From assembly GCF_011745625.1 (NCBI RefSeq), contig NW_027191482.1, forward strand, positions 1-64,000: 64,000 nucleotides of DNA. The letters run 5' to 3'. Made by a program: the position numbers and the translations under genes. This stretch comes from Cladosporium halotolerans (Eukaryota). Shown in pieces: positions 3,562 to 63,925 of the stretch; within the stretch, counting starts at the first letter, position 1; each line of letters starts with the position of its first letter. The notes beneath the pieces are model-generated. The model was not told where the DNA came from. It searched no databases and saw only the letters and a list, made by a program, of their open reading frames with translations.

Positions 3562-5456
3562 CTAAAACCTCCCACCACTGCCCCTCCAATACTCCCCCTC
3601 CTCTTCCTCAGGCGGATGCAGTCCCAGCCCGCCCCTAGCCCTCTGATCGCGCGCGTCGTACCCGTGATCACGGCTAGAGCTATTCTGCCTGCTCAGCGGC
3701 ATCTTAGGCGTGCTGAACGACGCGTTAGGCGGGTTGTAGCGGCGCTCGCCGGAGACGGGCGGGGGCGGCGAGACGGAGCCGAAGTAGTCGCGCGTCGTCG
3801 CGCGGCTGCTGTTCTGGCGGTGCAGGATGGGATTCGTGGAGCCGGAAGAGTCGTGGCCGGGACGGCGGGAGCTGTAGGTTGGGTCCGGGGAGTGGGTTTC
3901 TGAGTAGCGGGGTGGGTTGTGGCGCGAGTGGGCGTAGGCGGGGTCGGAGTCGTTCTGGAGGGGGCTGCGGTAGGCGGATTCGGGGGAGTGGAGGAAGGTC
4001 TCGGAGGAGTCGGTGATGTTGGGGCTTTTGCGGTCGGGGTTGTAGGAGAGTGGGCCGGAGATGGTGGCGGTGTAGCCGGGCTTTTGCATTTCGAAGGTCG
4101 TGTTGTGGTGGCCGTTGTCGTAGTTGTGGTATTCACGCTGGGAGGGAGCGCGCATGATGTCTGTTCTGGCATCGAGGGAGACGAACTCTTGTCGCTTGGT
4201 GAAGCGGTGGGTGAAGAACTCGAGCCAGGCGGGGAAGATCGATGGTCTGGTGAGAAAGAGGAAAACCTGTACGCCGGCCAGAGAGAGGAGGATGAGCACT
4301 GCGACGACAGTGGGCTCGTTCACGCGATAGTTGGCCGCCTCGTCGAGGCATTTGTTCTTATCGGTTGGGTGTTGCGCGAGGCACATTACCCAAGGCATGA
4401 TCTTTTCGACATCATCGGGGACCCTCGTTTGCAAGCCATCCAGATAGACGAACACAATCGCGAAGAAGATGACATCCACGAGGATGATGGTGCAAATGAT
4501 GATTCCACGCCATTGCAGCCAAAGGACCTTCTTTAGTCGCTGGTAGACTGCGCGTGCGGTCTGTGTGTGGACACTGCCAGTGTAGCTTGGGAGGCCACTG
4601 CCGGAGGCGCTGGTGGAGTTCGCCGGGCTGTCGACCCAAAGATTCTTCAAGTAAACGTGCATGCAGTATCCGAAAGTGATCAGCTGGAGAATACCAGCAA
4701 TGCCAGCCATTCCCATCAGGGGGCCCCAGAAGTCGGCCATGGAGTCGGCGTGGTTTACGTGGCAAGCGCTGCCAAACCGGAAGCTGACACCGGTGAGAGT
4801 CATGGTGACCGTGAAGAGGATAGCCGGAATGCCCCAACCAACGACCTGCGAGACGTAGAAGAACTTGCGACCAGGGACAATGTCCCAGCAGATCTGCAAG
4901 TTCATCGACAGAGCACGAATGCAAATCCACATGGCGGCGCACAATCCGCCAGCCACGATGAAGGCACCGCTCCACGCGCATCCCATCGACGAGTACATAT
5001 CGTTTGGTGTAATCGCGTCGTAGCATTGCTCAGGATTCGCGCCCAGGGGTATTGTGAAGCCAAGGCAGATCATGATGACTGCAATGATCAAACATACTGA
5101 CAGGTAATGACTCCTCGTCTTCTGTGTCGGCAGGACCATGTAGCTCAACAGCATGAAGACCAACAATATCAGGCCAACGACGTTCAACCATTCTGAAATG
5201 TCATTGTATGTTGTGAAGTTGTCTGAATAGGCCCACTGTGTTGCCGGACAGGGCAGGCAACATGTCGGCTTGCCAGGAAGGATGTCTACAGGCGTGCAGA
5301 ACCGGCCCTTGATGACTGTATCGTGTCAGCACGAGACCACTGCAATGCGATAATGTATTGATCAAACGTACATCCTCCTTCGGTAGGGAAAAGCGCTTCG
5401 TCCAGGAACGGGGCAAGACAGTTGCCCAGGAAAGGCGATATCGTCGAATTATCCAT
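3562..5456 (-). CDS. Seven-transmembrane GPCR-like protein, fungal GprM/MG00532-like class
   Basis: Exon 1 5456-5372 (MDNSTISPFLGNCLAPFLDEALFPTEGG), intron 5371-5316 (GTACGT...GCTGAC...CAG), exon 2 from FIKGRFCTP..TCCLPCPATQWAY into 7 hydrophobic helices with CYDAITPNDM, GWGIP and GVSFRFGSACH motifs and a Ser/Pro-rich cytoplasmic tail. Confidence 0.8.
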
Positions 5457-8826: not shown

Positions 8827-9595
8827 TCATTCCTTATAGATATTGATCCCGAGATGGACAGCAAACATGGCTATGAGAAGCTTGTGACCAAGTTAGCGGG
8901 AGCACCAAGCAATGTGAACAGGCGCGGGTATTCCACGCACCAGGAGAATGTAAGTGCCGATGACCATGAGTTCCCATCCTCCAGCTTGCACCTTGCCAAT
9001 GGCCATCAGATGCTGTTGACGAAAGTAACGAATGGCTCCAAGCAGTGTCACGCAAACCGCAGAGCCGTGAAATATGCAGGAAATGGGTTTGCTAAGGACG
9101 TAGTACCCAAAAACTGGATCGGGTGTGGGGGAGTGTTGCAGGCGGTACAGCTGTGCAATGACTACACCCAACATAGCGAGTGCAAGGGAAGTACGTAGGT
9201 ATCCCAGAAACGTACGCTCATTGGCTGACCAACGTCAGTTCAAGATTAGGAGATGGTGCGAGAATGAAAATGTTGCCGCCAGATAGCACAAGCGTTGCAC
9301 AGGGCTTACCTAGGTGATCTCTGCAGTCATCATGGGGTACTGTGATCCTTACATGGTGCCGCCAGAACTTCTTCACTGGGTCGTACCAATGCAGCTCCGC
9401 GCTAGGAGGAGTCAGGGCTCGTGAATGCCATCGGTGGCCGGGCGATACGTCTCGCAGCTCTGTCGCTTCCCGCTCGTCGTCACTATCTGAGTCTGCATCC
9501 GACCTCCTGGTGTGTGCTGGCTCGGGCTCGGGCACGGCCTGCTCAGAAGGCGTATGCTGTGACAGTGACTTTCTCTGTCTGGGCTCCTCTGCCAT
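8827..9595 (-). CDS. DUF202 (YidH-like) small membrane protein
   Basis: Three exons: 9595-9310, 9224-8941, 8880-8827. Splicing creates the DUF202 signature RDHLANERTFLGYLRTS followed by three TM segments, ending LLIAMFAVHLGINIYKE*. Confidence 0.85.
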
Positions 9596-30790: not shown

Positions 30791-32120
30791 CTATTGCTTC
30801 GCCTTAACGCCATGCTCGGTCATCATCAGTTCGCCGTCCCTCTCCCTCTCGAGAGCCCGCACTTTCGCCTCGGGAATGGTCAGGCACTGGATTCCGAGGT
30901 ACTCGCAGATCGCGTTGACGACCACGAAAGCCCAGCGGAAGTAGATGACCACGCTGATGAAGAAGTATGTCCAGAGGTATCCAACTTCGACTTTGGCAGA
31001 GACAGGTGAGAGGCCAATCAAGGGCAGCCAAGCGAGGACGGCGCCTCCACCGAGCGGTACCAGCAGAACGGTCCAGTAGGGGAAGGGCTGTCTGGTGAGA
31101 TGTGCCAGAATGATTTTGGTGGTCATGCGACCAAAGACGAAGGACAGGGTCAGGCACAGAAGGACAAGGTGGTTGTCCGAGAGAATGTGCGAGTAGGGTG
31201 ATCCGAGCCAGGCACACAGTGTGCCGACGAAGAAGAACATCGAGAACCACTCCAAGAAGAGAGGTGCGACTGACAGTCCCTTCGCGCGGCGTGCTTGCGC
31301 AACGTTAATGACGCAAGACGGCAAGTGAGCTGTGCAGAAGGCGAACAGAATGATGGGTACCCAAAGGTCGAGGAAGCTGGTCTCGCCCAAGAAGGCATCA
31401 TAGCCGAAGAGCTTGGCCAAAGGCTCCGTCCAAAGTCCAGCGCCCCAGATGCCGCTTGCAGCCATGATCAGACTGGCGATGAGGAGGCCTTCGGTAGGGC
31501 CGTTGAAATAGCCCAGGTACAGGGTGTGCGTGTGGTACGTCTCCCATGTGCTGAAGAACATAGGCAGGCAAGGCACTATGGCTGTGAAAGCACCCAACCT
31601 CGTCGATCCAAGTCCCATGGCGCTAGCTTCGAGAAGCGAGGCGAGTGTGCAGTTCAGACTGTCAATGCCATGGTCGAAAAGCTCACCAAGGCCAGAAGAG
31701 GTACCGGTGCGGCGGGCTTGCTTGCCGTCAATGTTGTCCATGGTGCTGTATGCCCACACTCCAAGTGCGTAGCAATAGCACACCCAAGCCTGCTTAGGGC
31801 CGAGGAGGTCCGGGTCCATAAGCTCCAAAAGGCCGACATTGAAGATGATGCAGAAGAAACCCAGCAAGGTCACCATATTAGGTGCCAGCCATAACGGCAG
31901 AAACTCCACGCAAAAATTCCACTGAGCATTACTGTTAGTATGTGGTAGCTGGTAGCATAGGGTTTCCGTGAATTTGGAGGCGTACGTAGTGTTTCAGAAC
32001 ATGCTGGGAAATTGGCGACTTATCCACCGAGGAGTACTTGTACGTCCGGAAATGCCTGAGGGCATCGTCCGACACGCACTCCTTCTGCGCGTTGCCTATC
32101 ATTTCCGTCAGAGAGTTCAT
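30791..32120 (-). CDS. Choline/ethanolamine phosphotransferase (CDP-alcohol phosphatidyltransferase, EPT1/CPT1 family)
   Basis: Exon 1 32120-31986 (YKYSSVDKSPIS), intron 31985-31922, exon 2 WNFCVEFLPLWLAPNMVTLLG...DNIDGKQARRTGTSSGLGELFDHGID (CDP-alcohol motif). Confidence 0.93.
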
Positions 32121-32803: not shown

Positions 32804-34042
32804 CTACTGATACCCATCAGAACCCGCGACTTTGATCCTTGTCGTAAATTCCGGATTAACCAGCGGGTTGTGCAGCTCCGCGATGGTGCTCATACACGCC
32901 GCCGCAGGATCTCCAGAAGCAGCCAGGCTTGTAGCCAGACCTCCAGCCCAATATTCGTTTCCTGGAAAGGCGTTCCCATCCCACGCGTAGCTCAAAACCA
33001 GTAGCTCGTCTCCCTCCAATTTCTCCGCGGGATCACGATGACTGAATATCACCTGAATGCCCTTCCTGGCCCCAATGTCTGTGACTTCCTGCTTCACCTC
33101 TGCGCGAAGCTTGTCAATGTAGGCGAACTCGACCGTTCCAATACACGCCAGCTCCAGCTCTGCAATCGCTGCCCCAAAAGCTGAGACATACCATTCGTGC
33201 TGCCGGGGCTCGTACTCCCAGGCTCCCAGCCCGAGTCCGACGACATACGCCCACGCCTTCGTATCCGCTTCTCTGGCACGGGCATTCGACTCTAGAAGGA
33301 ACAAGTCTGCCGTCACGCGGATCCGCGCCTTGTACATTGGCACGTCGAATTGAGCAGCGAAATCTCGCGTGGCACCGAGAAAAGCCTGAATCATAGAGCT
33401 GACCATGGGGTCTGGGGAAAAAAGTATATCCTTGTCGCTCATGGGCGGAGGCATGATATGCACGGAGTCCATGCGATGCTCTCGCTCGAAGCGAGCACCC
33501 GCAAGGCCGATGATGATGCCTCGCTCCTGATGTGGCTCTTCGGGTTTGAGGCGAGCCATGTTGTAGCGATTGCCGGTGTTGATGAAGTAGGAGGGTCCAC
33601 TGACTCCGAGTAGGGATGAGAGCATGATTTCGTCGTAGCTAAGGTAGTCTTGCAGGGACAAGTGCCTGTTGAGGTGCTGAAGGGGGGTGCCGTTGCGATC
33701 CCACTCATAGTTCCCATAGCTCAGTCTTGTGCCATCGCGGAGCACCGTGTAGTCTTCAGCGCCCAGGAAGGTGAGCGGACGTGCCTGGATCAGGCGGACG
33801 ACGAGCTGGCGCCAGTCGAGCGAGACGTAGAGCGCCTGCTCGTAGGCAGACCCATAGGTACGCTTGTACGTGAGGAAGGCATCCAGAAGCTGGGGGTAGC
33901 GGGGATGGATGAGGATGTGAGTCGCTCTTGCGTCTGAAGCGATGCTGTCGGCTGGAAAGTTGGCGGTGCTGCTGGTCTTGGTAGGTGGCTTTAAGACCAA
34001 GTTATCTAGTGTCAAAGACACGGCATCACTACTGCCAGACAT
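32804..34042 (-). CDS. DUF4804 / MavL-like macrodomain protein, putative ADP-ribosyl-arginine hydrolase
   Basis: Intronless, 412 aa. Motifs RPLTFLG, YLSYDEIMLSSLLGVSGPSYFINTGNRYN, GLAGARFE, VVGLGLGAW and SYAWDGNAFPGNEYW...SGDPAAACMSTIAELHNPLVN match my recollection of DUF4804 proteins (Drosophila CG2909/CG3568, Legionella MavL). Confidence 0.8.
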   Translation of the reverse strand: MSGSSDAVSLTLDNLVLKPPTKTSSTANFPADSIASDARATHILIHPRYPQLLDAFLTYKRTYGSAYEQALYVSLDWRQLVVRLIQARPLTFLGAEDYTVLRDGTRLSYGNYEWDRNGTPLQHLNRHLSLQDYLSYDEIMLSSLLGVSGPSYFINTGNRYNMARLKPEEPHQERGIIIGLAGARFEREHRMDSVHIMPPPMSDKDILFSPDPMVSSMIQAFLGATRDFAAQFDVPMYKARIRVTADLFLLESNARAREADTKAWAYVVGLGLGAWEYEPRQHEWYVSAFGAAIAELELACIGTVEFAYIDKLRAEVKQEVTDIGARKGIQVIFSHRDPAEKLEGDELLVLSYAWDGNAFPGNEYWAGGLATSLAASGDPAAACMSTIAELHNPLVNPEFTTRIKVAGSDGYQ

Positions 34043-34555
34043 GGCTTCTGCGATGAAGTGGCGTTATTGTCTCTGGTGATGGTCAGGGGAGAACCTTTTC
34101 GCTGAGCCAGGTCAAGAAGCGCGAGTACGCACAGGTACGCGCAGGGAAGGAACCTCATTCACCGGTCTCCAGGCATCAGTTCCAAAGTCAACTCGAGTCC
34201 TCACACCATCTCCTTCACCTGCGTATGATTCACTAGGCAACAAGAAAAGACACAACGATCGAACCTACTATGAGCTTGTACTACGCCGACGCAGTTGACT
34301 CATCAGAGCGTCAATAATAAATACCATGAGAATATCAGGTTCGCGAACGTGTTCATGACCCAGGCTTCCATGATTCTGTATATCGCAAGATTAAGCTTCG
34401 CGCTAGCGAGTCATGTACTCGCAGCAACTTTCACATCATCGCAAAGCTATCGCGTGGCACTACCACCCGCAAGTCTCTCGGAGGCCACTTCTTCTACTCT
34501 ACACCAGACCGACATACACGGCTCGTTCGCCCAATAGCGGACTCACACCGCCGTG

Positions 34556-37500
34556 ATGTCGAACCAACAGAAAGGCGGCGCCGGTGGCGGCGGCGACAAC
34601 AACATGAGCCAGTACAAGTATGGCGCCATGTCCAACTTGGTCCTGCAGGCGGACCGGCGCTTCGTCTCGCGTCGCGGCGACGAGAATACCGGTGATCCTG
34701 AATCTCTCGCGGGTCGCATCAGATTAGGCGACATGGGCTCGAGAACAGCACGCGAGGCCGCGCCCGCGCGCCCGCCGGCGATGGACCAGGCGCGCAAGAG
34801 GAAGCGGACGGAGCCCGTGCAGAGCTCGAGAGCGGCCGGTGTGCTGAGCCAGGCGGACTTGAACATCGAGGGACTGCGATACAGGCCTCGGACGGCTGCG
34901 ACGAAGGATGTCTACGATCTCATTGCGACTGAGGTCGCCCGGAAGATGGGTGGCGATTACGGGCTTGCGGTCACAGCGTCGGCGACGGATTCGATTCTGG
35001 AGTATCTGAAAGATGAGACGCTGAAGGATTTTGACAAGAAGAAGGAGATCGATGATATCCTTGGCGTGCATCTCACCAGCCAAGAGATGAACATGCTGGT
35101 GAATCTGGGAAAGAAGATCACAGATTATGACGCGCAAGATGAAGATGAAGAAATGGGAGAAGAGGCCGGCGAGGGTGCGGACATCGATGAGCGTCAGGGT
35201 GTGGCAGTTGACTTCGGCGAAGAGGACGAAGAGGAGGAGGGCAAAGGCCAGACTTTCGAGGTACGAGACGAGGACGAAGAATCTGAGGATGAACTCCAGA
35301 TGGGCACCGAGGAAATCACTGGCGAGATCGACGGCCCTCCGCCAGCTGCCGCCGACGAGGAGGAAGCGGATGAAGATGGAATGGTAATCGAGAATCGATC
35401 ACAACGCAAAGATGCCGAGCAGGATCCCGACATTGTACCAGCGCACGAGATCGACGCATACTGGTTACAAAGACAGATCGGACAACTCTACGAAGATGCA
35501 CACATTCAATCGGAGAAGACGCAAGAGTCGGAACAGATCATGTCGGCTTTGGAGGATGACTCCGGCGAGCAAAAACCCCTGCGCGAGGTGGAAAACGATT
35601 TGATGGAGCTCTTCGATTACGAACACCCTGAGCTCGTTGGCAAGCTCGTCAAAAACAGAGACAAGATTGTGTGGGTGCTCCGATGGCAACGCGCTGGTGA
35701 AGACCAGCAGGCGCGATCAAATGTGGAAAAAGAGATGGTTGGTGCGGGACACGCTGCAATCTTGAAAGAGCTGAGAGGTCGCGATGAGCCCTCAAATGAG
35801 GGCAAGGCGAAGCTGAACATCAAGCTTGACCCGATGGAGTTGGACGCGAAAGCGCCTGCACCAGAAGTGCAGGAAGCTCCTCGAGACGGCCTCGTCGGCG
35901 GACTTCAGCCTCGTCGCACACTGAATGTCGAAGATCTCAAGTTTGACCAGGGAAACCATCTCATGACGAACCAGAATGTTCGCCTTCCCCAGGGCTCAAC
36001 AAAGCGAACGTTCAAGGGCTATGAAGAAATTCATGTCCCAGCTCCTAAGCCGAAATTTGATCCTTCAGAACCGCTAAAGCCTACGTCTGATCTCCCAGCT
36101 TGGGCGCAAGCCGGATTCGGATCTTCAAAGTCATTGAATCGAATTCAAACGAGATGCTATCCCACGGCGTTCGAAGACGATGGCAACATGTTGATCTGCG
36201 CCCCCACCGGTTCCGGCAAGACCAACGTCGCTATGCTGACAATGCTGCGTGAGATCGGCAAGCACCGAAATCCTGAGACTGGCGAAATTGACCTGGACAG
36301 CTTCAAGATTGTCTACATTGCACCTTTGAAAGCCTTGGTGCAGGAGCAAGTGGGAAACTTTGGCAAGAGACTGGAGCCGTATGGCATTACGGTGTCTGAG
36401 CTTACAGGTGACCGACAACTCACAAAGCAGCAAATCGCAGACACTCAGGTCATCGTCACTACCCCTGAAAAGTGGGACGTTATCACCCGCAAGGCCACGG
36501 ACACCAGCTACACAAATCTTGTTCGCCTGATTTGCATTGACGAAATCCACTTGCTCCATGATGACCGTGGACCTGTGCTTGAGAGCATCGTCGCGAGAAC
36601 CATCCGACGCCAGGAACAAACTGGAGACCCGGTTCGCATAGTTGGTCTATCTGCTACTTTGCCGAACTACCGCGATGTTGCCACATTCCTACGTGCGGAC
36701 CCTCAGACCGGTGTGTTCCACTTTGATGGTAGCTTCCGCCCTTGCCCTCTCAAACAGGAGTTTGTTGGCGTCACAGATAAGAAGGCCATCAAGCAGCTGA
36801 AGACTATGAATGATGTCTGTTACACCAAGACCCTAGAGCAAGTCGGCCAAAACAAGCAGCAGATGCTCATTTTCGTTCATTCGCGCAAGGAGACTGCAAA
36901 GACCGCCAAGTATATTCGGGATAAGGCGATGGAGCTCGAGACCATTGGCCAGATCTTGCGCACAGACGGCGCGACTCGCGAGATTCTGCGTGACGAGGCT
37001 GACAGCGCGGGTAACGCTGATCTCAAGGATGTCCTGCCCTACGGTTTCGGTATCCACCACGCTGGTATGAGCAGAGCCGACAGGACGACCGTTGAAGACT
37101 TGTTCGCCGACGGTCACATTCAAGTATTGGTGTGCACAGCCACGCTTGCCTGGGGTGTCAACCTTCCCGCTCACACCGTCATTATCAAAGGCACTCAGGT
37201 CTATTCTCCCGAGAAGGGTAGCTGGGTCGAGCTCAGTCCGCAAGACGTGTTGCAGATGCTTGGTCGCGCCGGTCGTCCTCAATACGACACCTACGGTGAA
37301 GGTATCATCATCACCTCACAGGGAGAGTTGCAATACTACCTCTCTTTGCTGAACCAGCAGCTCCCTATCGAGAGTCAGTTCGCTTCTCGTCTGGCCGACA
37401 ACTTGAACGCGGAAATTGTCCTTGGCAACATTCGGACCAGAGACGAGGGTGTCCAATGGCTTGGATACACCTATCTGTTCGTCCGTATGCTGCGTTCGCC

Positions 37501-40500
37501 GAACCTGTACCAGGTCGGTGCAGAGTACGACGACGATGAAGCCTTGGAGCAGAGGCGAGTGGACTTGATTCATTCGGCCGCGGTGATGCTCGAAGCAGCC
37601 AGCCTGGTCAAGTATGATAAGAAGTCGGGTCGCCTGCAGTCAACTGAACTTGGCCGTGTTGCCAGTCACTACTACATCACGCACAACAGCATGTTGACCT
37701 ACAACCGCAACATCCAGCCCTCCGTGAGTCCGATCGAGCTGTTCCGAATCTTCGCTCTCAGCGAGGAGTTCAAGTACATTCCTGTGCGTCAGGATGAGAA
37801 GCTTGAGATGGCTAAGCTCCTTGGACGTGTGCCTATTCCGGTCAAGGAGACCATCGATGAACCCCACTGCAAGATCAACGTCCTTCTTCAGGCCTTCATC
37901 AGCAGATTGAAGCTCGAAGGCCTTGCCCTCATGGCAGATCTTGTGTACGTTACCCAGTCGGCCGGACGTATTCTGCGTGCGATGTTCGAGATCGCTTTGA
38001 AGAAGGGCTGGGCAGGTGTCGCTAAGGATGCTTTGGCTCTCTGCAAAACGGCAGAGAAGCGAATGTGGCCGACGATGACTCCTCTGCGCCAGTTCCCCGA
38101 ATGCTCACCGGAAATCATCAAGAAGGCCGAGCGCATCGACGTGCCCTGGCAGCAATACTTTGACCTTGACCCTCCTCGCATGGGTGAGCTGCTTGGTATG
38201 CAGAAGCACGGACGCCAGGTCTGCAACATGGTCTCCCGTTTCCCTCGGCTGGATGTCCAGGCGCAGGTTCAACCCATCACCAGGAGTATGCTACGCGTGG
38301 AGCTGACACTCACACCAAACTTCGAGTGGGACGACAACCTTCACGGCCGCGCCGAGAGCTGGTGGATTATCGTCGAGGACTGCGATGGTGAGCAGATTCT
38401 TTTCCACGACCAGTTCCTGCTTCGCAAGGACTATGCCATCTCTGAGATGAACGAGCACCTTGTGGAATTCACCGTCCCGATCACCGACCCCATGCCACCG
38501 AACTACTTCATTACTGTAGTTTCGGACCGTTGGATGCATGCTGAAAGCAAGCTCGCACTGAGCTTCCAGAAGTTGCATCTTCCAGACAAGTTCCCTGCTC
38601 ACACCCCTCTGCTTGAATTGCAGCCACTGCCGGTCGCTTCGCTTAAGAGACAAGAGTTCGTGGACCTTTATCCCGACTGGAGCAATTTCAACCGGATCCA
38701 GTCGCAGACCTTCAACCACCTGTTCCAGTCAGATGACAGCGTTCTCATTGGATCTGCTGCTGGCAGTGGCAAGACCGTTTGTGCGGAATTCGCGCTCCTG
38801 AGGCACTGGTCCAAGCAAAATCCTGGCAAGGCTGTCTACATTGCGCCTTTCCAAGAACAAGTGGATGCCCGACAGAAATCTTGGCAGCCCCGTTTCTCTG
38901 GTCTGGCAGGTGGCAAGGAGGTTGTGAAGCTCACTGGTGAGACTGCCGCCGACCTGAAGCTCCTTGAGCGGGGCGATCTTATTCTCGCTACACCTGCGCA
39001 GTGGGACATGATGTCTCGCCAGTGGCAGCGCCGCAAGAATGTGCAGAACACAAAGCTGCTGATTGCGGATGACCTGCACTTGCTCGGTGGCCACGGCGGC
39101 TACGTCTACGAGACTATCGTTTCTCGAACGCAGGCCATTGCCGCGAACTTGGAGACCAACGTTCGTATCGTCGGACTAAGTGTCTCCCTCGCAAACGCCA
39201 GGGACATTGGCGAGTGGATTGGAGCCAGCAAGCAGACGATCTACAACTTCAGCCCTGCGGTACGACCGATTCCGCTGGGTCTGCATCTGCAATCGTTCAC
39301 CATCCCCCACTTCCCTTCGCTCATGCTTGCCATGACGAAGCCTACTTACCAGGCTATCCTGCAACACGCCTCTGAGAAGCCCGCCATGGTGTTTGTGCCT
39401 AGCCGTAAGCAAGTGCGTGCGACAGCGTCAGACTTGCTCGCTGCTTGCGTTGCAGATGACGACGAGGATCGTTTCCTTCATGCCGACATCGAGACTCTCT
39501 CACCGTTGCTCAAGAAGGTCAAGGAGCGATCGCTGGCTGAGTCGCTCTCTCATGGCATTGCCTATTACCACGAGGCTATGTCTGCCGGTGACAAGCGTAT
39601 CGTCGATCACCTGTTCAGTCAAGGAGCTGTCCAGGTCATGCTGGTGTCGAGAGACTGCTGCTGGGAGATTCAGAGCTCGGCGTACCTTGTCATCATCATG
39701 GGCACGCAGTTCTTTGAAGGTCGCGAGCATCGATACATCGACTACCCGATCAGCGAAGTTCTGCAGATGTTCGGAAAGGCAGGCCGCTCTCTTGAAGACA
39801 AGGAGTCTCGCGGCGTTCTCATGTGCCCAGCCGTCAAGCGCGAGTACTACAGCAAGTTCCTCAAGGAGGCTCTTCCGATCGAGAGTCAACTGCAGACTTT
39901 CTTCCACGATGCCTTTGTCACCGAAATCAGCACCAAGACGATTGAGTCCACTCAGGACGCCGTGGACTGGTCGACCTACACATACTTCTACCGCAGACTG
40001 CTGGCCAACCCCAGCTTCTACGGCTTGCAAGACACATCACACGACGGCTTGAGCGCATATCTGTCAGAGTTGGTCGAGTCGACGCTCAAGGAGCTATCGG
40101 AAGCCAAGCTGATCGAGCTCGACGAGGACGAGGACACAGTCGAGCCGATGAACGCCGCCATGATCGCAGCCTACTACAACATCTCGTTCATCACCATGCA
40201 GACCCTGCTCCTCTCGCTCAAGCGCAACACGAAGCTCAAGGGCATCCTTGAAATCATCACTGCCGCCACCGAGTTCGAAGACATCCAGATCCGCCGGCAC
40301 GAAGAGCACGTCCTGCAGCGCATCTACGACCGCGTGCCCGTCAAGCTCGGCGAAGTCAACTTCGAATCCCCCCACTTCAAGGCCTTCGTCCTCCTGCAAG
40401 CCCACTTCTCCCGCATGCAACTCCCCACCGACCTCGCCAAGGACCAGGAACTCGTCCTCCGCAAGGTCCTCGGCCTCCTCTCCGCCTCCGTCGACGTCCT

Positions 40501-41167
40501 CTCCTCCGAAGGCCACCTCAACGCCATGAGCGCCATGGAGATGAGCCAGATGGTCGTGCAGGCCATGTGGGACCGCGACTCGCCGCTGAAGCAGATCCCG
40601 CACTTCGGCCCGGAAGTCGTCGACGCCTGCAACGCCGCCGGCGTCTCCGACGTCTTCGAGTTCATGGAGGCCATGGACCCCAGCGAGAACCCCGACTACG
40701 GCAAGCTCGTGCAGGCCATGGGCCTCTCCAACGCGCAGCTGGCCGACGCCGCCCGCTTCACGAACGAGCGCTACCCGAACGTCGAGCTGAACTTCGAGCT
40801 CGAGGAGCCGGACGCCGTCGTCTCCGGCGCGCCGAGCGTGCTCAACGTCTCCGTCGAGCGCGAGATCGAAGAGCACGAGCAGCCGAACCTGGCCGTCCAC
40901 GCGCCCTTCTACCCCGCGGAGAAGACGGAGAACTGGTGGCTGGTCGTCGGCGAGGAGAGCTCCAAGTCCCTGCTGGCCATCAAGAGGGTCACGGTCGCGC
41001 GGGCGCTGAAGACGAAGCTCGAGCTCGTCGTGCCGACGCCGGGCAGGCATGCGCTGACGCTGTTTTTGATGAGCGCGGATTACGTTGGCGTCGACCAGGC
41101 GCCGACGTTCGAGGTTGATGCTGCGGAAGGGATGGAGGAGGATGAGGATGAGGATGACGAGGAGTAG
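34556..41167 (+). CDS. BRR2: U5 snRNP pre-mRNA splicing helicase Brr2 (SNRNP200)
   Basis: N-terminal QYKYGAMSNLVLQADRRF, PWI-like EIDAYWLQR, first helicase cassette (APTGSGKT, DEIH, SATLPN, QMLGRAGRP), second degenerate cassette (AAGSGKT, DDLH), two Sec63 domains; single exon, ATG at 34556. Confidence 0.97.
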   Translation: MSNQQKGGAGGGGDNNMSQYKYGAMSNLVLQADRRFVSRRGDENTGDPESLAGRIRLGDMGSRTAREAAPARPPAMDQARKRKRTEPVQSSRAAGVLSQADLNIEGLRYRPRTAATKDVYDLIATEVARKMGGDYGLAVTASATDSILEYLKDETLKDFDKKKEIDDILGVHLTSQEMNMLVNLGKKITDYDAQDEDEEMGEEAGEGADIDERQGVAVDFGEEDEEEEGKGQTFEVRDEDEESEDELQMGTEEITGEIDGPPPAAADEEEADEDGMVIENRSQRKDAEQDPDIVPAHEIDAYWLQRQIGQLYEDAHIQSEKTQESEQIMSALEDDSGEQKPLREVENDLMELFDYEHPELVGKLVKNRDKIVWVLRWQRAGEDQQARSNVEKEMVGAGHAAILKELRGRDEPSNEGKAKLNIKLDPMELDAKAPAPEVQEAPRDGLVGGLQPRRTLNVEDLKFDQGNHLMTNQNVRLPQGSTKRTFKGYEEIHVPAPKPKFDPSEPLKPTSDLPAWAQAGFGSSKSLNRIQTRCYPTAFEDDGNMLICAPTGSGKTNVAMLTMLREIGKHRNPETGEIDLDSFKIVYIAPLKALVQEQVGNFGKRLEPYGITVSELTGDRQLTKQQIADTQVIVTTPEKWDVITRKATDTSYTNLVRLICIDEIHLLHDDRGPVLESIVARTIRRQEQTGDPVRIVGLSATLPNYRDVATFLRADPQTGVFHFDGSFRPCPLKQEFVGVTDKKAIKQLKTMNDVCYTKTLEQVGQNKQQMLIFVHSRKETAKTAKYIRDKAMELETIGQILRTDGATREILRDEADSAGNADLKDVLPYGFGIHHAGMSRADRTTVEDLFADGHIQVLVCTATLAWGVNLPAHTVIIKGTQVYSPEKGSWVELSPQDVLQMLGRAGRPQYDTYGEGIIITSQGELQYYLSLLNQQLPIESQFASRLADNLNAEIVLGNIRTRDEGVQWLGYTYLFVRMLRSPNLYQVGAEYDDDEALEQRRVDLIHSAAVMLEAASLVKYDKKSGRLQSTELGRVASHYYITHNSMLTYNRNIQPSVSPIELFRIFALSEEFKYIPVRQDEKLEMAKLLGRVPIPVKETIDEPHCKINVLLQAFISRLKLEGLALMADLVYVTQSAGRILRAMFEIALKKGWAGVAKDALALCKTAEKRMWPTMTPLRQFPECSPEIIKKAERIDVPWQQYFDLDPPRMGELLGMQKHGRQVCNMVSRFPRLDVQAQVQPITRSMLRVELTLTPNFEWDDNLHGRAESWWIIVEDCDGEQILFHDQFLLRKDYAISEMNEHLVEFTVPITDPMPPNYFITVVSDRWMHAESKLALSFQKLHLPDKFPAHTPLLELQPLPVASLKRQEFVDLYPDWSNFNRIQSQTFNHLFQSDDSVLIGSAAGSGKTVCAEFALLRHWSKQNPGKAVYIAPFQEQVDARQKSWQPRFSGLAGGKEVVKLTGETAADLKLLERGDLILATPAQWDMMSRQWQRRKNVQNTKLLIADDLHLLGGHGGYVYETIVSRTQAIAANLETNVRIVGLSVSLANARDIGEWIGASKQTIYNFSPAVRPIPLGLHLQSFTIPHFPSLMLAMTKPTYQAILQHASEKPAMVFVPSRKQVRATASDLLAACVADDDEDRFLHADIETLSPLLKKVKERSLAESLSHGIAYYHEAMSAGDKRIVDHLFSQGAVQVMLVSRDCCWEIQSSAYLVIIMGTQFFEGREHRYIDYPISEVLQMFGKAGRSLEDKESRGVLMCPAVKREYYSKFLKEALPIESQLQTFFHDAFVTEISTKTIESTQDAVDWSTYTYFYRRLLANPSFYGLQDTSHDGLSAYLSELVESTLKELSEAKLIELDEDEDTVEPMNAAMIAAYYNISFITMQTLLLSLKRNTKLKGILEIITAATEFEDIQIRRHEEHVLQRIYDRVPVKLGEVNFESPHFKAFVLLQAHFSRMQLPTDLAKDQELVLRKVLGLLSASVDVLSSEGHLNAMSAMEMSQMVVQAMWDRDSPLKQIPHFGPEVVDACNAAGVSDVFEFMEAMDPSENPDYGKLVQAMGLSNAQLADAARFTNERYPNVELNFELEEPDAVVSGAPSVLNVSVEREIEEHEQPNLAVHAPFYPAEKTENWWLVVGEESSKSLLAIKRVTVARALKTKLELVVPTPGRHALTLFLMSADYVGVDQAPTFEVDAAEGMEEDEDEDDEE

Positions 41168-47405: not shown

Positions 47406-47844
47406 ATGGGCGCCGAACCGATCTCCTTCGAATACCACCAGAACGCCCAAACGTCTTTCAAACCCCCTCTCATCGCCAACGAAAACGCCTTCCTGGGCGA
47501 CGTCTTCACGTCCGAGAGCAACGACCCCAGCGCGCCCATCTCCGCCGGCTTCTACCGTCTAGAGAAAGGTGAGAACATCCCGTCGACTCAAATCCCTTCT
47601 AGTAGCAACGATTCGTTGGCTGAACGATAATGACAAAGGCACCCCCCTCGTCTACGAATACACCTACCACGAAATGAAGATCATCGTCGACGGCAGCTTC
47701 GACATCTCGGACGAGACGGGCAAGAAGGTGCACGCGACCAAGGGCGACGTCTTCTACTTCCCCAAGGGCTCGAAGATCACGTTCGAGACGGACGATTTCG
47801 GGCTGGGGTTCTTTTGCGGGCAGAGGAAGAAGGATGGGGCGTGA
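47406..47844 (+). CDS. EutQ-like small cupin protein
   Basis: Exon 1 47406-47568, intron 47569-47638 (GTGAGA...AAG), exon 2. Spliced product APISAGFYRLEKGTPLVYEYTYHEMKIIVDGSFDISDETGKKVHATKGDVFYFPKGSKITF is a EutQ/cupin_3 pattern. Confidence 0.85.
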
Positions 47845-63382: not shown

Positions 63383-63925
63383 TCACCAATGCTTCTCAGA
63401 GATGTCGACAGAGTTCACGTCCACCACATCATCCGTGAACCAACGCTCAGAGATCTCAATATCATTGCCGCTCATCTGCCGCTTCCGCATCCGACCATCC
63501 TCGGCAAAAGTCCAGTCTTCCAGGCCGTAACAACGCTTCCATTTCATGCCGTCGTATTTGTCCTGGTACTCATACCAGAACTGCACGGCGATACGGTCTC
63601 CCGTGAAGGCGAAAAGCTCTTTACGCAGGCGATACGACTTCTCCTTATCCCACTTCTTGGTCAGAAAGTCGATGATGGGCTGGGTCCCAGTGAAGAATTG
63701 GTCGCGGTTGCGCCAGATGCAGTCTTCGGTGTACGCTTTGGAGACCGCGACAGGGTCCCTTGAAGAGGTTACTATAGAACGAGAATGCGGAGTGGTTGGT
63801 GTGAAGAGAAGAGACAGTTCTGAACAATTTAGATATGGGAAGACTCACTGAGCATTCCACAAATCCTGTGCCTTTTTCACTTTGGCCCTAGCGGTTTCTT
63901 CGTTGAAAGGTGGTACGAGTGCCAT
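63383..63925 (-). CDS. DUF1348 (NTF2/SnoaL-like) protein
   Basis: MALVPPFNEETARAKVKKAQDLWNAQ, intron 63848-63759, DPVAVSKAYTEDCIWRNRDQF...KELFAFTGDRIAVQFWYEY...YGLEDWTF...GRMRKRQMSGND. Confidence 0.88.

Follow-up and report, generated by a model that had tools for sequence, protein, structure and literature searches.

The window, a 64-kb stretch of DNA, carries on its reverse strand a complete, intronless gene (32804..34042; 412 codons plus stop) for a macrodomain protein of the MavL-like class (PF16062, the former DUF4804). The product is predicted to be a soluble enzyme, probably cytosolic or nuclear, that most likely binds mono-ADP-ribosylated arginine in proteins and hydrolyses its N-glycosidic bond, a reading that we hold with good though not high confidence; we infer both catalytic activity and arginine specificity from the solved relatives. 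The observation made in the preliminary description of this DNA is confirmed, and its interpretation is supported in part.

Family, fold and active site of the macrodomain protein

The Pfam profile search assigns the protein to PF16062 ("ADP-ribosylhydrolase MavL-like") (E 9.1e-83; 279 bits, cut-off 27), and its sequence matches the solved chains of the Drosophila melanogaster proteins CG3568 (8dmu, E 1.6e-52) and CG2909 (8dmt, E 2.5e-43). At the level of sequence, these matches far exceed chance, and the DUF4804-type assignment originally made from the letters holds under this profile check. For the Legionella-type MavL subfamily PF24754 the score is 11.7 bits where 27 are required (E 0.12, residues 345-373 only), which by profile places the protein in the wider PF16062 class and outside MavL proper. 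No Pfam match at E <= 1 was obtained to PARG catalytic-domain families or to the ARH (ARH1/DraG) family. A KNOX1 match (E 0.01, 16 bits, cut-off 26) lies below its cut-off and was rejected as a chance hit.

Both signature loops given for the class by Zhang et al. (2024, PMC10951314; this paper and PMC6778782, PMC7949102, PMC9864599, PMC12879935 and PMC13036486 are cited throughout for the portions available) are matched exactly, with one regular-expression match each. The diphosphate-binding loop, [VIL]xGxGxGx[FWY], is represented by VVGLGLGAW (residues 267-275; 33218..33244, reverse strand, as for all features of the protein below), and the catalytic loop, WDxx[SA]xPGN[DE][FY][FWY], by WDGNAFPGNEYW (residues 354-365; 32948..32983). 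The other motifs quoted at the outset are likewise found in the protein, LSYDEI at residues 134-139, FINTGNRYN at 153-161, SGDPAAAC at 376-383 and ELHNP at 389-393.

Conservation was counted in an alignment of 80 sequences. The diphosphate loop (G269 80/80, G271 79/80, G273 80/80, W275 79/80) and the catalytic loop (D355 79/80, N362 79/80, E363 78/80) are both retained, and the three catalytic-loop residues correspond to MavL D315, N322 and D323 (PMC10951314). The S376-G377-D378 triplet (32909..32917) matches TGD in the alignments with CG3568 and CG2909; judged from motif and spacing rather than from superposition, S376 and D378 (79/80 each) are the likely equivalents of MavL T331 and D333, the holders of the catalytic water (PMC11668277). 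Within FINTGNRYN (33560..33586), N155, R159 and N161 are each conserved in 80/80, and R159 aligns with CG3568 R209, the residue stacking on adenine (PMC10951314). In GARFE (residues 182-186; 33485..33499; G182 80/80, R184 80/80, E186 73/80), E186 falls opposite CG3568 E237, which corresponds to MavL E107 and is a proposed contact of the arginine side chain (PMC10951314). The residues to which the literature assigns a part in binding ADP-ribose, placing the water or contacting arginine are present and kept in 73-80 of the 80 relatives, as the consensus residue each time, and the earlier statement that the W-D, G-N-[D/E] and downstream D residues are all in place is borne out. The exception is the hydrophobic arginine-contact site of the family-specific insertion, where L93 (33764..33766) aligns with CG3568 F148 and CG2909 F137, and where MavL has F105 and Larg1 V77; this column varies, and most of its residues are hydrophobic (M 24, L 14, F 13, V 10, Y 9, C 4, with the remaining 6 of the 80 not itemised). 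For residue numbering against the fly chains, the construct offset is +19 for 8dmu and +6 for 8dmt.

The AF2 model (pLDDT 95.9, pTM 0.94) gives a Foldseek TMq of 0.86 to 8dmu and 0.84 to 8dmt and, among the matches listed (26 at E <= 1e-3), all are chains of CG3568, CG2909, Larg1 or MavL. In VIA-align, the predicted model superposes on CG3568 (8dmu) with Z 46.8 (rmsd 2.2 Å, 393 residues) and on CG2909 (8dmt) with Z 45.9 (1.9 Å, 388 residues), followed by Larg1 (Z 34.2 over 338 residues) and MavL (Z 27.6). In the model, the family-specific fold is present, with L93 placed by sequence alignment at the hydrophobic position of the insertion, and the structural comparison with MavL and CG2909 that had been proposed returns the macrodomain fold of the MavL-like class. 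The next entry after the class members is a bacterial (Deinococcus) PARG at Z 6.6-7.0 over 164-169 residues, a distant resemblance of the model that agrees with the topological likeness noted in PMC10951314.

According to the open reading frames of the window, the gene begins with an ATG and runs for 412 amino acids without introns; an in-frame stop lies 7 codons 5' of the ATG (stop-to-stop frame 32804..34063, 419 aa). Homologues measure 394-417 aa and span 96-100% of its length, so the intronless gene model, as originally described, is complete. The Kyte-Doolittle 19-residue mean peaks at 0.37 for windows starting at residues 1-30 and at 1.58 over the whole protein; by this measure no signal-peptide-like N-terminus is found in the 412-aa protein, in line with the earlier statement that it has none.

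Genomic setting, distribution and descent

The gene lies between two housekeeping genes, whose earlier identification as EPT1/CPT1 and BRR2 is upheld by Pfam matches. Downstream is the large exon of a CDP-alcohol phosphatidyltransferase gene (CPT1/EPT1-like; 30791..31993, reverse strand; PF01066, E 7.3e-9). On the other side, across a shared 513-bp divergent intergenic region that presumably contains both promoters (34043..34555), stands a BRR2/SNRNP200-type spliceosomal helicase gene (34556..41167, forward strand; Pfam Sec63, DEAD, BRR2_plug, Helicase_PWI and SNRNP200_wHTH) encoding a plug, a PWI, two DEAD and two Sec63 domains. The head-to-head arrangement with BRR2 recurs in four related metagenome contigs (L074, L075, L076 and L084). 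BRR2 is missing upstream in L077, L078, L082 and L083 despite at least 2.8 kb of flank, and a CDP-alcohol phosphatidyltransferase neighbour is found at 0 of 43 metagenome loci, so conserved synteny is limited to BRR2 in the four loci. In those same four contigs, the MavL-like protein shows 65-67% identity versus 91-93% for BRR2 and, by these values, evolves much faster than its neighbour. Such fast evolution, taken with the patchy taxonomy, would be as compatible with an accessory or conflict-related role as with housekeeping.

The host is a Dothideomycete, closest among named organisms to Cladosporium. Labelled eukaryotic members of the family include sequences of Pezizomycotina, chytrids, Plasmodiophora, Sappinia and arthropods. 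Among fungi, the conserved, intact gene is carried by Dothideomycetes, Sordariomycetes, Lecanoromycetes and chytrids, and two paralogues occur in some Dothideomycetes (Oleoguttula). The novelty of the finding had been overrated, given that Zhang et al. report DUF4804 in fungi in their 2024 MavL paper (PMC10951314) and that automatic annotation already calls the cluster of this protein "ADP-ribosylhydrolase MavL-like". Our search of the literature on the MavL-like/DUF4804 family found, by title or abstract, no study of a fungal member.

Bacterial relatives occur at 73 loci with 26-40% identity (higher values come from short partial matches alone); by title, 22 of these belong to Dependentiae/Babeliales/TM6, 10 to Chlamydiae and 4 to Rickettsia/Rickettsiales. 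Such relatives might suggest a recent horizontal acquisition from an intracellular bacterium, with a function not integrated into the fungus, and yet we regard this as very improbable. In the IQ-TREE tree, the protein sits in a Pezizomycotina-only clade of 20 rows (SH-aLRT 98), and all 22 Pezizomycotina rows fall on one side of a branch with support 72. FastTree recovers a Pezizomycotina-only clade of 21 rows including the protein (support 100) and places 47 of the 49 bacterial rows in one separate clade. Chytrid fungi carry the family too, and at a GC content of 0.556 the gene region resembles the surrounding DNA. Since the protein nests in a Pezizomycotina-only clade, the trees give no support to a recent transfer from bacteria and point to vertical descent within Pezizomycotina. 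Of the two outcomes that a phylogeny had been proposed to test, patchiness among eukaryotes is thus observed and a recent bacterial origin is not. An ancient transfer in either direction may have taken place, being compatible with these trees, which are unrooted and in which arthropod sequences carry no labels.

Predicted reaction and possible roles

As a plausible mechanism, read from the corresponding residues of the relatives, the GxGxG loop (267-275) with W275 would hold the diphosphate, R159 would stack on the adenine, and the WD...GNE loop (D355, N362, E363) would hold the distal ribose and the guanidinium, with L93 and E186 contacting the arginine side chain. A353, S376 and D378, together with the diphosphate, would position a catalytic water, which the substrate's own alpha-phosphate would activate to attack C1'', yielding ADP-ribose and unmodified arginine.

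Arg mono-ADP-ribosylation has been studied in depth in connection with bacterial toxins and vertebrate ecto-ARTs, but we know of no described role for it in fungi. A conserved and intact fungal eraser would imply that the modification, be it of the fungus's own making or the work of other organisms, is important enough to warrant removal. Regarding its role, we lean towards reversal of endogenous Arg-ADP-ribosylation, at somewhat under an even chance, with smaller shares for removal of foreign-toxin marks and, smaller still, for some other function. More tentatively, this vertically inherited and catalytically intact eraser of Pezizomycotina might indicate a reversible Arg mono-ADP-ribosylation cycle in filamentous fungi with an unrecognised writer, possibly an R-S-E-type ART-like protein or a sirtuin-type transferase. 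If such an endogenous cycle exists, the gene is a handle for finding Arg-ADPr substrates. The locus itself offers nothing over the 2024 family description and the hundreds of other fungal genomes; its value is that of a clean, intronless and easily expressed example.

No cognate writer had been seen near the gene, and the Pfam scan agrees, with ART families in 0 of the 285 stop-to-stop ORFs of at least 90 aa in the window. As an argument this counts for little, since fungi do not arrange their genes in operons. Among 55 long MavL-like representatives (of 150 listed, from 1567 matching clusters), none is fused to an ART family, and two carry ADP-ribose-signalling domains (WWE, PARG) as fusion partners. 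At the 73 bacterial loci, 681 ORFs were called and clustered; the top neighbour family (RF-1 domain) appears at 6/73 and the others, ABC transporter, ankyrin and ThrRS among them, at no more than 5/73. An ART family was found in 0 of the 42 proteins scanned from these loci, namely the 25 longest of the 32 MavL-like ORFs of at least 520 aa (the seven shortest measure 528-551 aa) and one representative each of the 17 neighbour clusters next in recurrence (3-6 loci each), and no recurrent writer stands beside the 73 relatives. The accompanying claim, that filamentous fungi have no well-described Arg mono-ART, stands insofar as our literature searches, one of them directed at named fungi, showed no description of an arginine-specific fungal ART among the papers listed. 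It needs qualifying, however, because cholera/pertussis-type ART-like genes (PF01375, PF02917) are annotated in Ophiocordyceps genomes (PMC9864599): candidate writer families do exist in fungi, none of them characterised as an arginine ART. The fungal toxin CCTX2 was considered as a further ART candidate and rejected, its effector domain not being an ART.

The same chemistry could instead serve as an antidote, removing Arg-ADPr that bacterial ART toxins, or those of competing fungi, attach to the fungus's own proteins, which we consider possible but doubtful. A precedent for such an attack is the bacterial Arg-ART Lpg0181/Lart1, which modifies a conserved arginine of the ~115-kDa NAD-GDH of the fungal/protist class, including yeast Gdh2p (PMC7949102). 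The patchy occurrence among eukaryotes, the paralogues in Oleoguttula and the concentration of bacterial members in taxa associated intracellularly with eukaryotes, tying the family to host-microbe conflict, all point the same way, as does the far faster evolution relative to BRR2, although BRR2 is an unusually conserved yardstick and this rate contrast is correspondingly weak. However, there is no sign of induction, expansion or clustering with defence genes; the gene is single-copy in the window, sits among housekeeping genes and keeps its arrangement with BRR2 in the four contigs, and knock-down of CG3568 in uninfected flies produces a mild growth and polarity phenotype (PMC6778782), hinting at an endogenous role for a eukaryotic member.

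It is unlikely, by our estimate, that the protein acts on another protein linkage, on ADP-ribosylated nucleic acid (e.g., guanine) or on a small-molecule conjugate (free ADP-ribosyl-arginine or O-acetyl-ADP-ribose), or that it is a non-catalytic reader. MavL, Larg1, CG2909 and CG3568, at 14-34% identity to the fungal protein, all cleaved the Arg-linked substrate and no other in a panel of synthetic mono-ADP-ribosylated ones (PMC10951314), and the two fly enzymes are inactive on thymidine-ADPr DNA (PMC12879935) and uracil-ADPr RNA (PMC13036486). The conservation of the full catalytic set argues against a mere reader. Leaving room for a different substrate, Zhang et al. state that Arg selectivity is untested across the class as a whole (PMC10951314), the fly enzymes act only weakly on ADPR-ubiquitin, so that protein-level specificity matters (PMC10951314, PMC11668277), and the arginine-contacting hydrophobic position is variable; guanine-ADPr and metabolite substrates are not mentioned in the available portions of PMC10951314, PMC12879935 and PMC13036486. 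Hydrolysis of protein Arg-ADPr remains our preferred reading of the biochemical activity.

Comparison with known enzymes

ARH1/DraG catalyse the reaction predicted here, removal of mono-ADP-ribose from arginine (PMC10951314), but with an unrelated fold and two metal ions required for catalysis, and are therefore functional analogues only. MavL of Legionella pneumophila (8dmp, 8ipj and others; PF24754), for which substrate-assisted hydrolysis of Arg-ADPr has been proposed (PMC10951314, PMC11668277), has the macrodomain class and the WD...PGN[DE] loop in common with the fungal protein, at 14-16% identity and with an insignificant sequence match (E about 0.6-0.8). It is a metaeffector that the bacterium secretes, and it recognises ubiquitin Arg42-ADPr, whereas the fungal protein shows no sign of ubiquitin recognition. 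Larg1/Lpg0081, also from L. pneumophila (7w3s, 7wbk), is an Arg-specific macrodomain of the same class with 15-17% identity; it binds adenine via an Asp rather than by Arg stacking, and it has a partner, a neighbouring writer effector (PMC10951314, PMC11668277), unlike the fungal gene in its window.

The likeness to CG3568 and CG2909 of D. melanogaster is much closer, with the same Pfam family, both signature loops and 31-34% identity. The fly proteins are longer by ~80-90 residues (498-508 aa versus 412 aa), have longer N-termini and an expanded variable region, and carry Phe where the fungal protein has Leu at position 93; compared with CG3568, the fungal protein has four inserted residues separating the GNE loop from SGD. 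R209, E237 and TGD of CG3568 find their counterparts in fungal R159, E186 and SGD, and the fly and fungal proteins alike are stand-alone, single-domain macrodomain proteins.

Family, fold and predicted active site

The ATG-initiated ORF at 32804..34042 (-) encodes 412 aa within a stop-to-stop frame of 419 aa (32804..34063), the ATG being preceded by an in-frame stop at a distance of only 7 codons. Because alignments with homologues of 394-417 aa span 96-100% of the window protein, the gene model without introns is complete. The GC content of the gene region (0.556) does not differ from that of its surroundings. Both neighbours named in the preliminary description are borne out by Pfam matches: a CDP-alcohol phosphatidyltransferase exon lies at 30791-31993 (-), and a BRR2-type helicase gene at 34556-41167 (+) is divergent from the MavL-like gene across a spacer of 513 bp.

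The product is a member of the PF16062 (DUF4804) class, matching the family HMM with 279 bits (cut-off 27; E 9.1e-83) and scoring 11.7 bits, under the cut-off, against PF24754, the Legionella-type subfamily. In a sequence search of solved structures, the Drosophila proteins CG3568 (8dmu; E 1.6e-52) and CG2909 (8dmt; E 2.5e-43) are retrieved, and the MavL match is not significant (E about 0.6-0.8). Our AlphaFold2 model, built from an 80-sequence alignment, has a mean pLDDT of 95.9 (<50 at residues 1-3 only) and a pTM of 0.94. Using Foldseek against the PDB, 26 chains are found at E <= 1e-3 (next match, E 1e-2); the matches listed at this threshold are all CG3568, CG2909, Larg1 or MavL, with TMq values of 0.86, 0.84, about 0.60 and 0.52-0.55, respectively. 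VIA-align superposes the model on CG3568 with a Z of 46.8 (rmsd 2.2 A, 393 residues), followed by CG2909 (45.9), Larg1 (34.2), MavL (27.6) and then bacterial PARG (7.0), a drop that fits the PARG-like topology described for the class (PMC10951314). The HMM match, the model and the Foldseek matches to MavL-like enzymes thus uphold the DUF4804 macrodomain identity that had been proposed.

The diphosphate-loop ([V/I/L]xGxGxGx[F/W/Y]) and catalytic-loop (WDxx[S/A]xPGN[D/E][F/Y][F/W/Y]) signatures described by Zhang et al. 2024 (PMC10951314) each have a single exact match in the window protein, VVGLGLGAW (267-275) and WDGNAFPGNEYW (354-365). Residues were mapped by pairwise alignments with CG3568 and CG2909 plus construct offsets; the chain-index offsets (+19 for 8dmu, +6 for 8dmt) return the correct residue types at R209, E237, F148 and F137. 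The adenine-stacking R209 of CG3568 corresponds to R159, E237 (MavL E107), proposed to contact the arginine, to E186, and the hydrophobic lid (CG3568 F148, CG2909 F137, MavL F105, Larg1 V77) to L93, while MavL D315, N322 and D323, at the distal ribose and guanidinium, correspond to D355, N362 and E363. A353, S376 and D378 would be, from motif and spacing, the counterparts of MavL A313, T331 and D333, which hold the catalytic water (PMC11668277). In the 80-sequence alignment, conservation is 80/80 for R159, G269 and G273, 79/80 for D355, N362, S376, D378 and G271, 78/80 for E363 and 73/80 for E186, and position 93 varies, with hydrophobic residues in the majority (M in 24 sequences, L in 14, F in 13, V in 10, Y in 9 and C in 4, leaving 6 of the 80). 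At none of the conserved sites does the window protein depart from the consensus, and nothing points to a pseudo-enzyme. The active-site elements reported earlier are thereby confirmed, both as exact signature loops and as conserved catalytic residues, and all of the motifs quoted then are present (residues 134-139, 153-161, 354-365, 376-383 and 389-393).

The N-terminus is not hydrophobic (the 19-residue Kyte-Doolittle mean peaks at 0.37 in windows that begin within residues 1-30 and at 1.58 over the full length), residues 1-40 include 3 basic and 4 acidic side chains, the chain is confidently modelled as part of the fold from about residue 11, and the C-terminal end is GYQ. We infer a soluble protein, cytosolic or nuclear; no signal-peptide-like N-terminus is seen, in agreement with the preliminary description, and the earlier placement as probably cytosolic is widened to include the nucleus.

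Distribution and descent of the family

A word-index search scored 8000 candidates and yielded 702 relatives at E <= 1e-5; PF16062 is present in 120/120 of the matches listed. One of these shares 97% identity with the window protein, and those that follow share 52-69%; the 23 with an organism name include Cladosporium (64-67%; Dothideomycetes by taxonomy check), Cryoendolithus, Hortaea, Baudoinia, Ramularia, several Pleosporales and similar genera, the classes of all but Cladosporium being presumed. At E <= 1e-3, an exhaustive representative search returned 1567 clusters, of which 554 reach E <= 1e-30. Organisms were looked up for 30 representatives, and the 19 with a name comprise further Dothideomycetes, Hypoxylon (twice) and Gaeumannomyces, which we take to be Sordariomycetes, the lichen-forming Lecanoromycete Gomphillus, five chytrids (Geranomyces, Rhizophlyctis, Borealophlyctis, Kappamyces, Entophlyctis), Plasmodiophora (Rhizaria), Sappinia (Amoebozoa; transcriptome record) and a Babeliales bacterium. 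Plasmodiophora, Sappinia and the five chytrid genera are represented by P0185, P0159, P0150, P0147, P0154, P0162 and P0168. In the protein atlas, the window protein's cluster is named "ADP-ribosylhydrolase MavL-like", with Ascomycota as its commonest phylum, and the clusters nearest to it are arthropod-dominated.

Bacterial PF16062 relatives (26-40% identity; 73 loci, L001-L073) show a strong concentration in lineages with an intracellular life in eukaryotes. The record titles assign the loci to Dependentiae/Babeliales/TM6 (22), Chlamydiae (10; Parachlamydiaceae, Waddliaceae, Protochlamydia), Rickettsia/Rickettsiales (4) and Coxiellaceae, Berkiella or Francisellaceae (3), the remainder being Planctomycetota (5), Bacteroidota (6), other or unclassified Pseudomonadota (10) and untyped MAGs (13). 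This concentration suggests gene exchange, in one direction or the other, between eukaryotes and their intracellular bacteria. It extends the published range of the family, as do the members assigned by name to chytrids, Amoebozoa and Rhizaria.

Both of our trees are unrooted, contain arthropod sequences only as unlabelled rows, and exclude multidomain proteins >620 aa and fragments <400 aa. In the FastTree tree (129 rows), the window protein is placed with Cladosporium (support 99). Both lie in a 21-row clade (support 100) that comprises, besides the window protein, 15 Dothideomycete rows, 3 Sordariomycete rows and 2 that lack an organism name; 47/49 bacterial rows form one separate clade. 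In a quick PMSF IQ-TREE run on 64 selected rows, 65/129 having been dropped by hand to thin unlabelled and bacterial groups, a branch with SH-aLRT 72 sets all 22 Pezizomycotina rows apart, with a core of 20 at support 98. Since the two sequences of Oleoguttula (P0052, P0129) fall in separate subclades, Dothideomycetes have at least two lineages of paralogues. Among related fungal metagenome contigs, four (L074, L075, L076, L084) carry an orthologue (65-67% identity) head-to-head with BRR2 (91-93%), as in the window, and four others (L077, L078, L082, L083; 62-65%) have no BRR2 within an upstream flank of at least 2.8 kb; these two contexts could reflect rearrangement or a second paralogue. A phosphatidyltransferase downstream of the MavL-like gene was found in 0/43 loci. 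We read the history as vertical descent of a moderately fast-evolving gene within Pezizomycotina. Recent horizontal transfer is not supported, given the placement among Pezizomycotina apart from the bacterial rows.

Search for a writer

No match to an ADP-ribosyltransferase (ART) family was detected among the 285 stop-to-stop ORFs of >=90 aa in the 64-kb window (267 ORFs scanned at E <= 1e-3, the remaining 18 covered by other Pfam scans, one of these at E <= 1e-5 and repeating some of the 267), in agreement with the preliminary description, which had seen no ART partner there; the host being a fungus, this says little about a writer. An ART domain is fused to the MavL-like domain in 0/55 long representatives, which instead include 7 tandem duplications of that domain, 3 proteins with ankyrin repeats and one each with PARG_cat_C, PP2C, a dual-specificity phosphatase domain and WWE, an ADP-ribose-binding domain. 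Next to the 73 bacterial relatives, even the most recurrent neighbour family occurs in no more than 6 loci, and ART was found in 0/42 of the bacterial-locus proteins scanned. Therefore, the window, the domain fusions and the bacterial neighbourhoods reveal no writer.

The fused representatives are unlabelled: P0265 (WWE), P0216 (PARG), P0230 (PP2C), P0235 (dual-specificity phosphatase) and P0202/P0212/P0237 (ankyrin repeats). In 3/73 bacterial loci, a classical Macro domain (PF01661) gene lies <=6 kb from the MavL-like gene, e.g., L029:4181-4918 (+). Rickettsia/Rickettsiales MAGs encode giant proteins (1643-2682 aa) with a MavL-like domain, combined with PP2C, a Ulp1-type C48 peptidase and ankyrin repeats in L069:1-8046 (+), with a UCH ubiquitin hydrolase domain and an ankyrin repeat in L062:2830-10317 (+), and with no other Pfam match in L070:2779-7707 (+). 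Fusion to ubiquitin/SUMO peptidases may point to a connection with the ubiquitin system, as in the case of MavL. Elsewhere in the window, a 587-aa ORF at 3565-5325 (-) has a sub-threshold secretin-type 7TM receptor match (E 6.4e-4; 19.5 bits, cut-off 20.6) and may encode a GPCR-like membrane protein of the fungus. Short ORFs or exons have matches to DUF1348 (63386-63844 (-); E 1.5e-46), DUF202 (8896-9234 (-); E 3.3e-16) and an EutQ-like cupin (47563-47841 (+); E 1.3e-8), and these three are unrelated to the MavL-like gene.

Predicted reaction and role

No PARP is known to write on arginine. PARPs are described as widespread in fungi (bioRxiv 10.64898/2026.07.25.740670), and cholera-/pertussis-type ART-like genes, mostly predicted to be secreted, are annotated in some fungal genomes (PMC9864599). 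Our literature search found no paper on a fungal member of the PF16062 family. We lean towards an eraser in an endogenous arginine ADP-ribosylation cycle as the biological role because of the vertical inheritance, the housekeeping neighbourhood and the mild growth phenotype reported upon CG3568 knock-down in flies (PMC6778782). The protein may alternatively serve as an antidote against foreign ART toxins, in line with the patchy distribution of the family, the faster evolution of the MavL-like gene relative to BRR2 and a bacterial Arg-ART reported to modify the 115-kDa glutamate dehydrogenase of fungi and protists (PMC7949102). The evidence fits both readings, and what makes the protein interesting is the broader question of arginine ADP-ribosylation in fungi rather than the window locus itself.

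By homology, the window protein is probably an arginine mono-ADP-ribosylhydrolase, and both activity and specificity are predicted on this basis: arginine would be freed of mono-ADP-ribose through the substrate-assisted mechanism put forward for MavL-like macrodomains (PMC10951314, PMC11668277). On the synthetic substrates reported for the class, 4/4 tested members were Arg-specific (PMC10951314), and CG3568 and CG2909 are described as inactive on thymidine-linked (PMC12879935) and uracil-linked ADP-ribose (PMC13036486). These two Drosophila proteins are the nearest known enzymes to the window protein, whereas MavL proper is remote from it.
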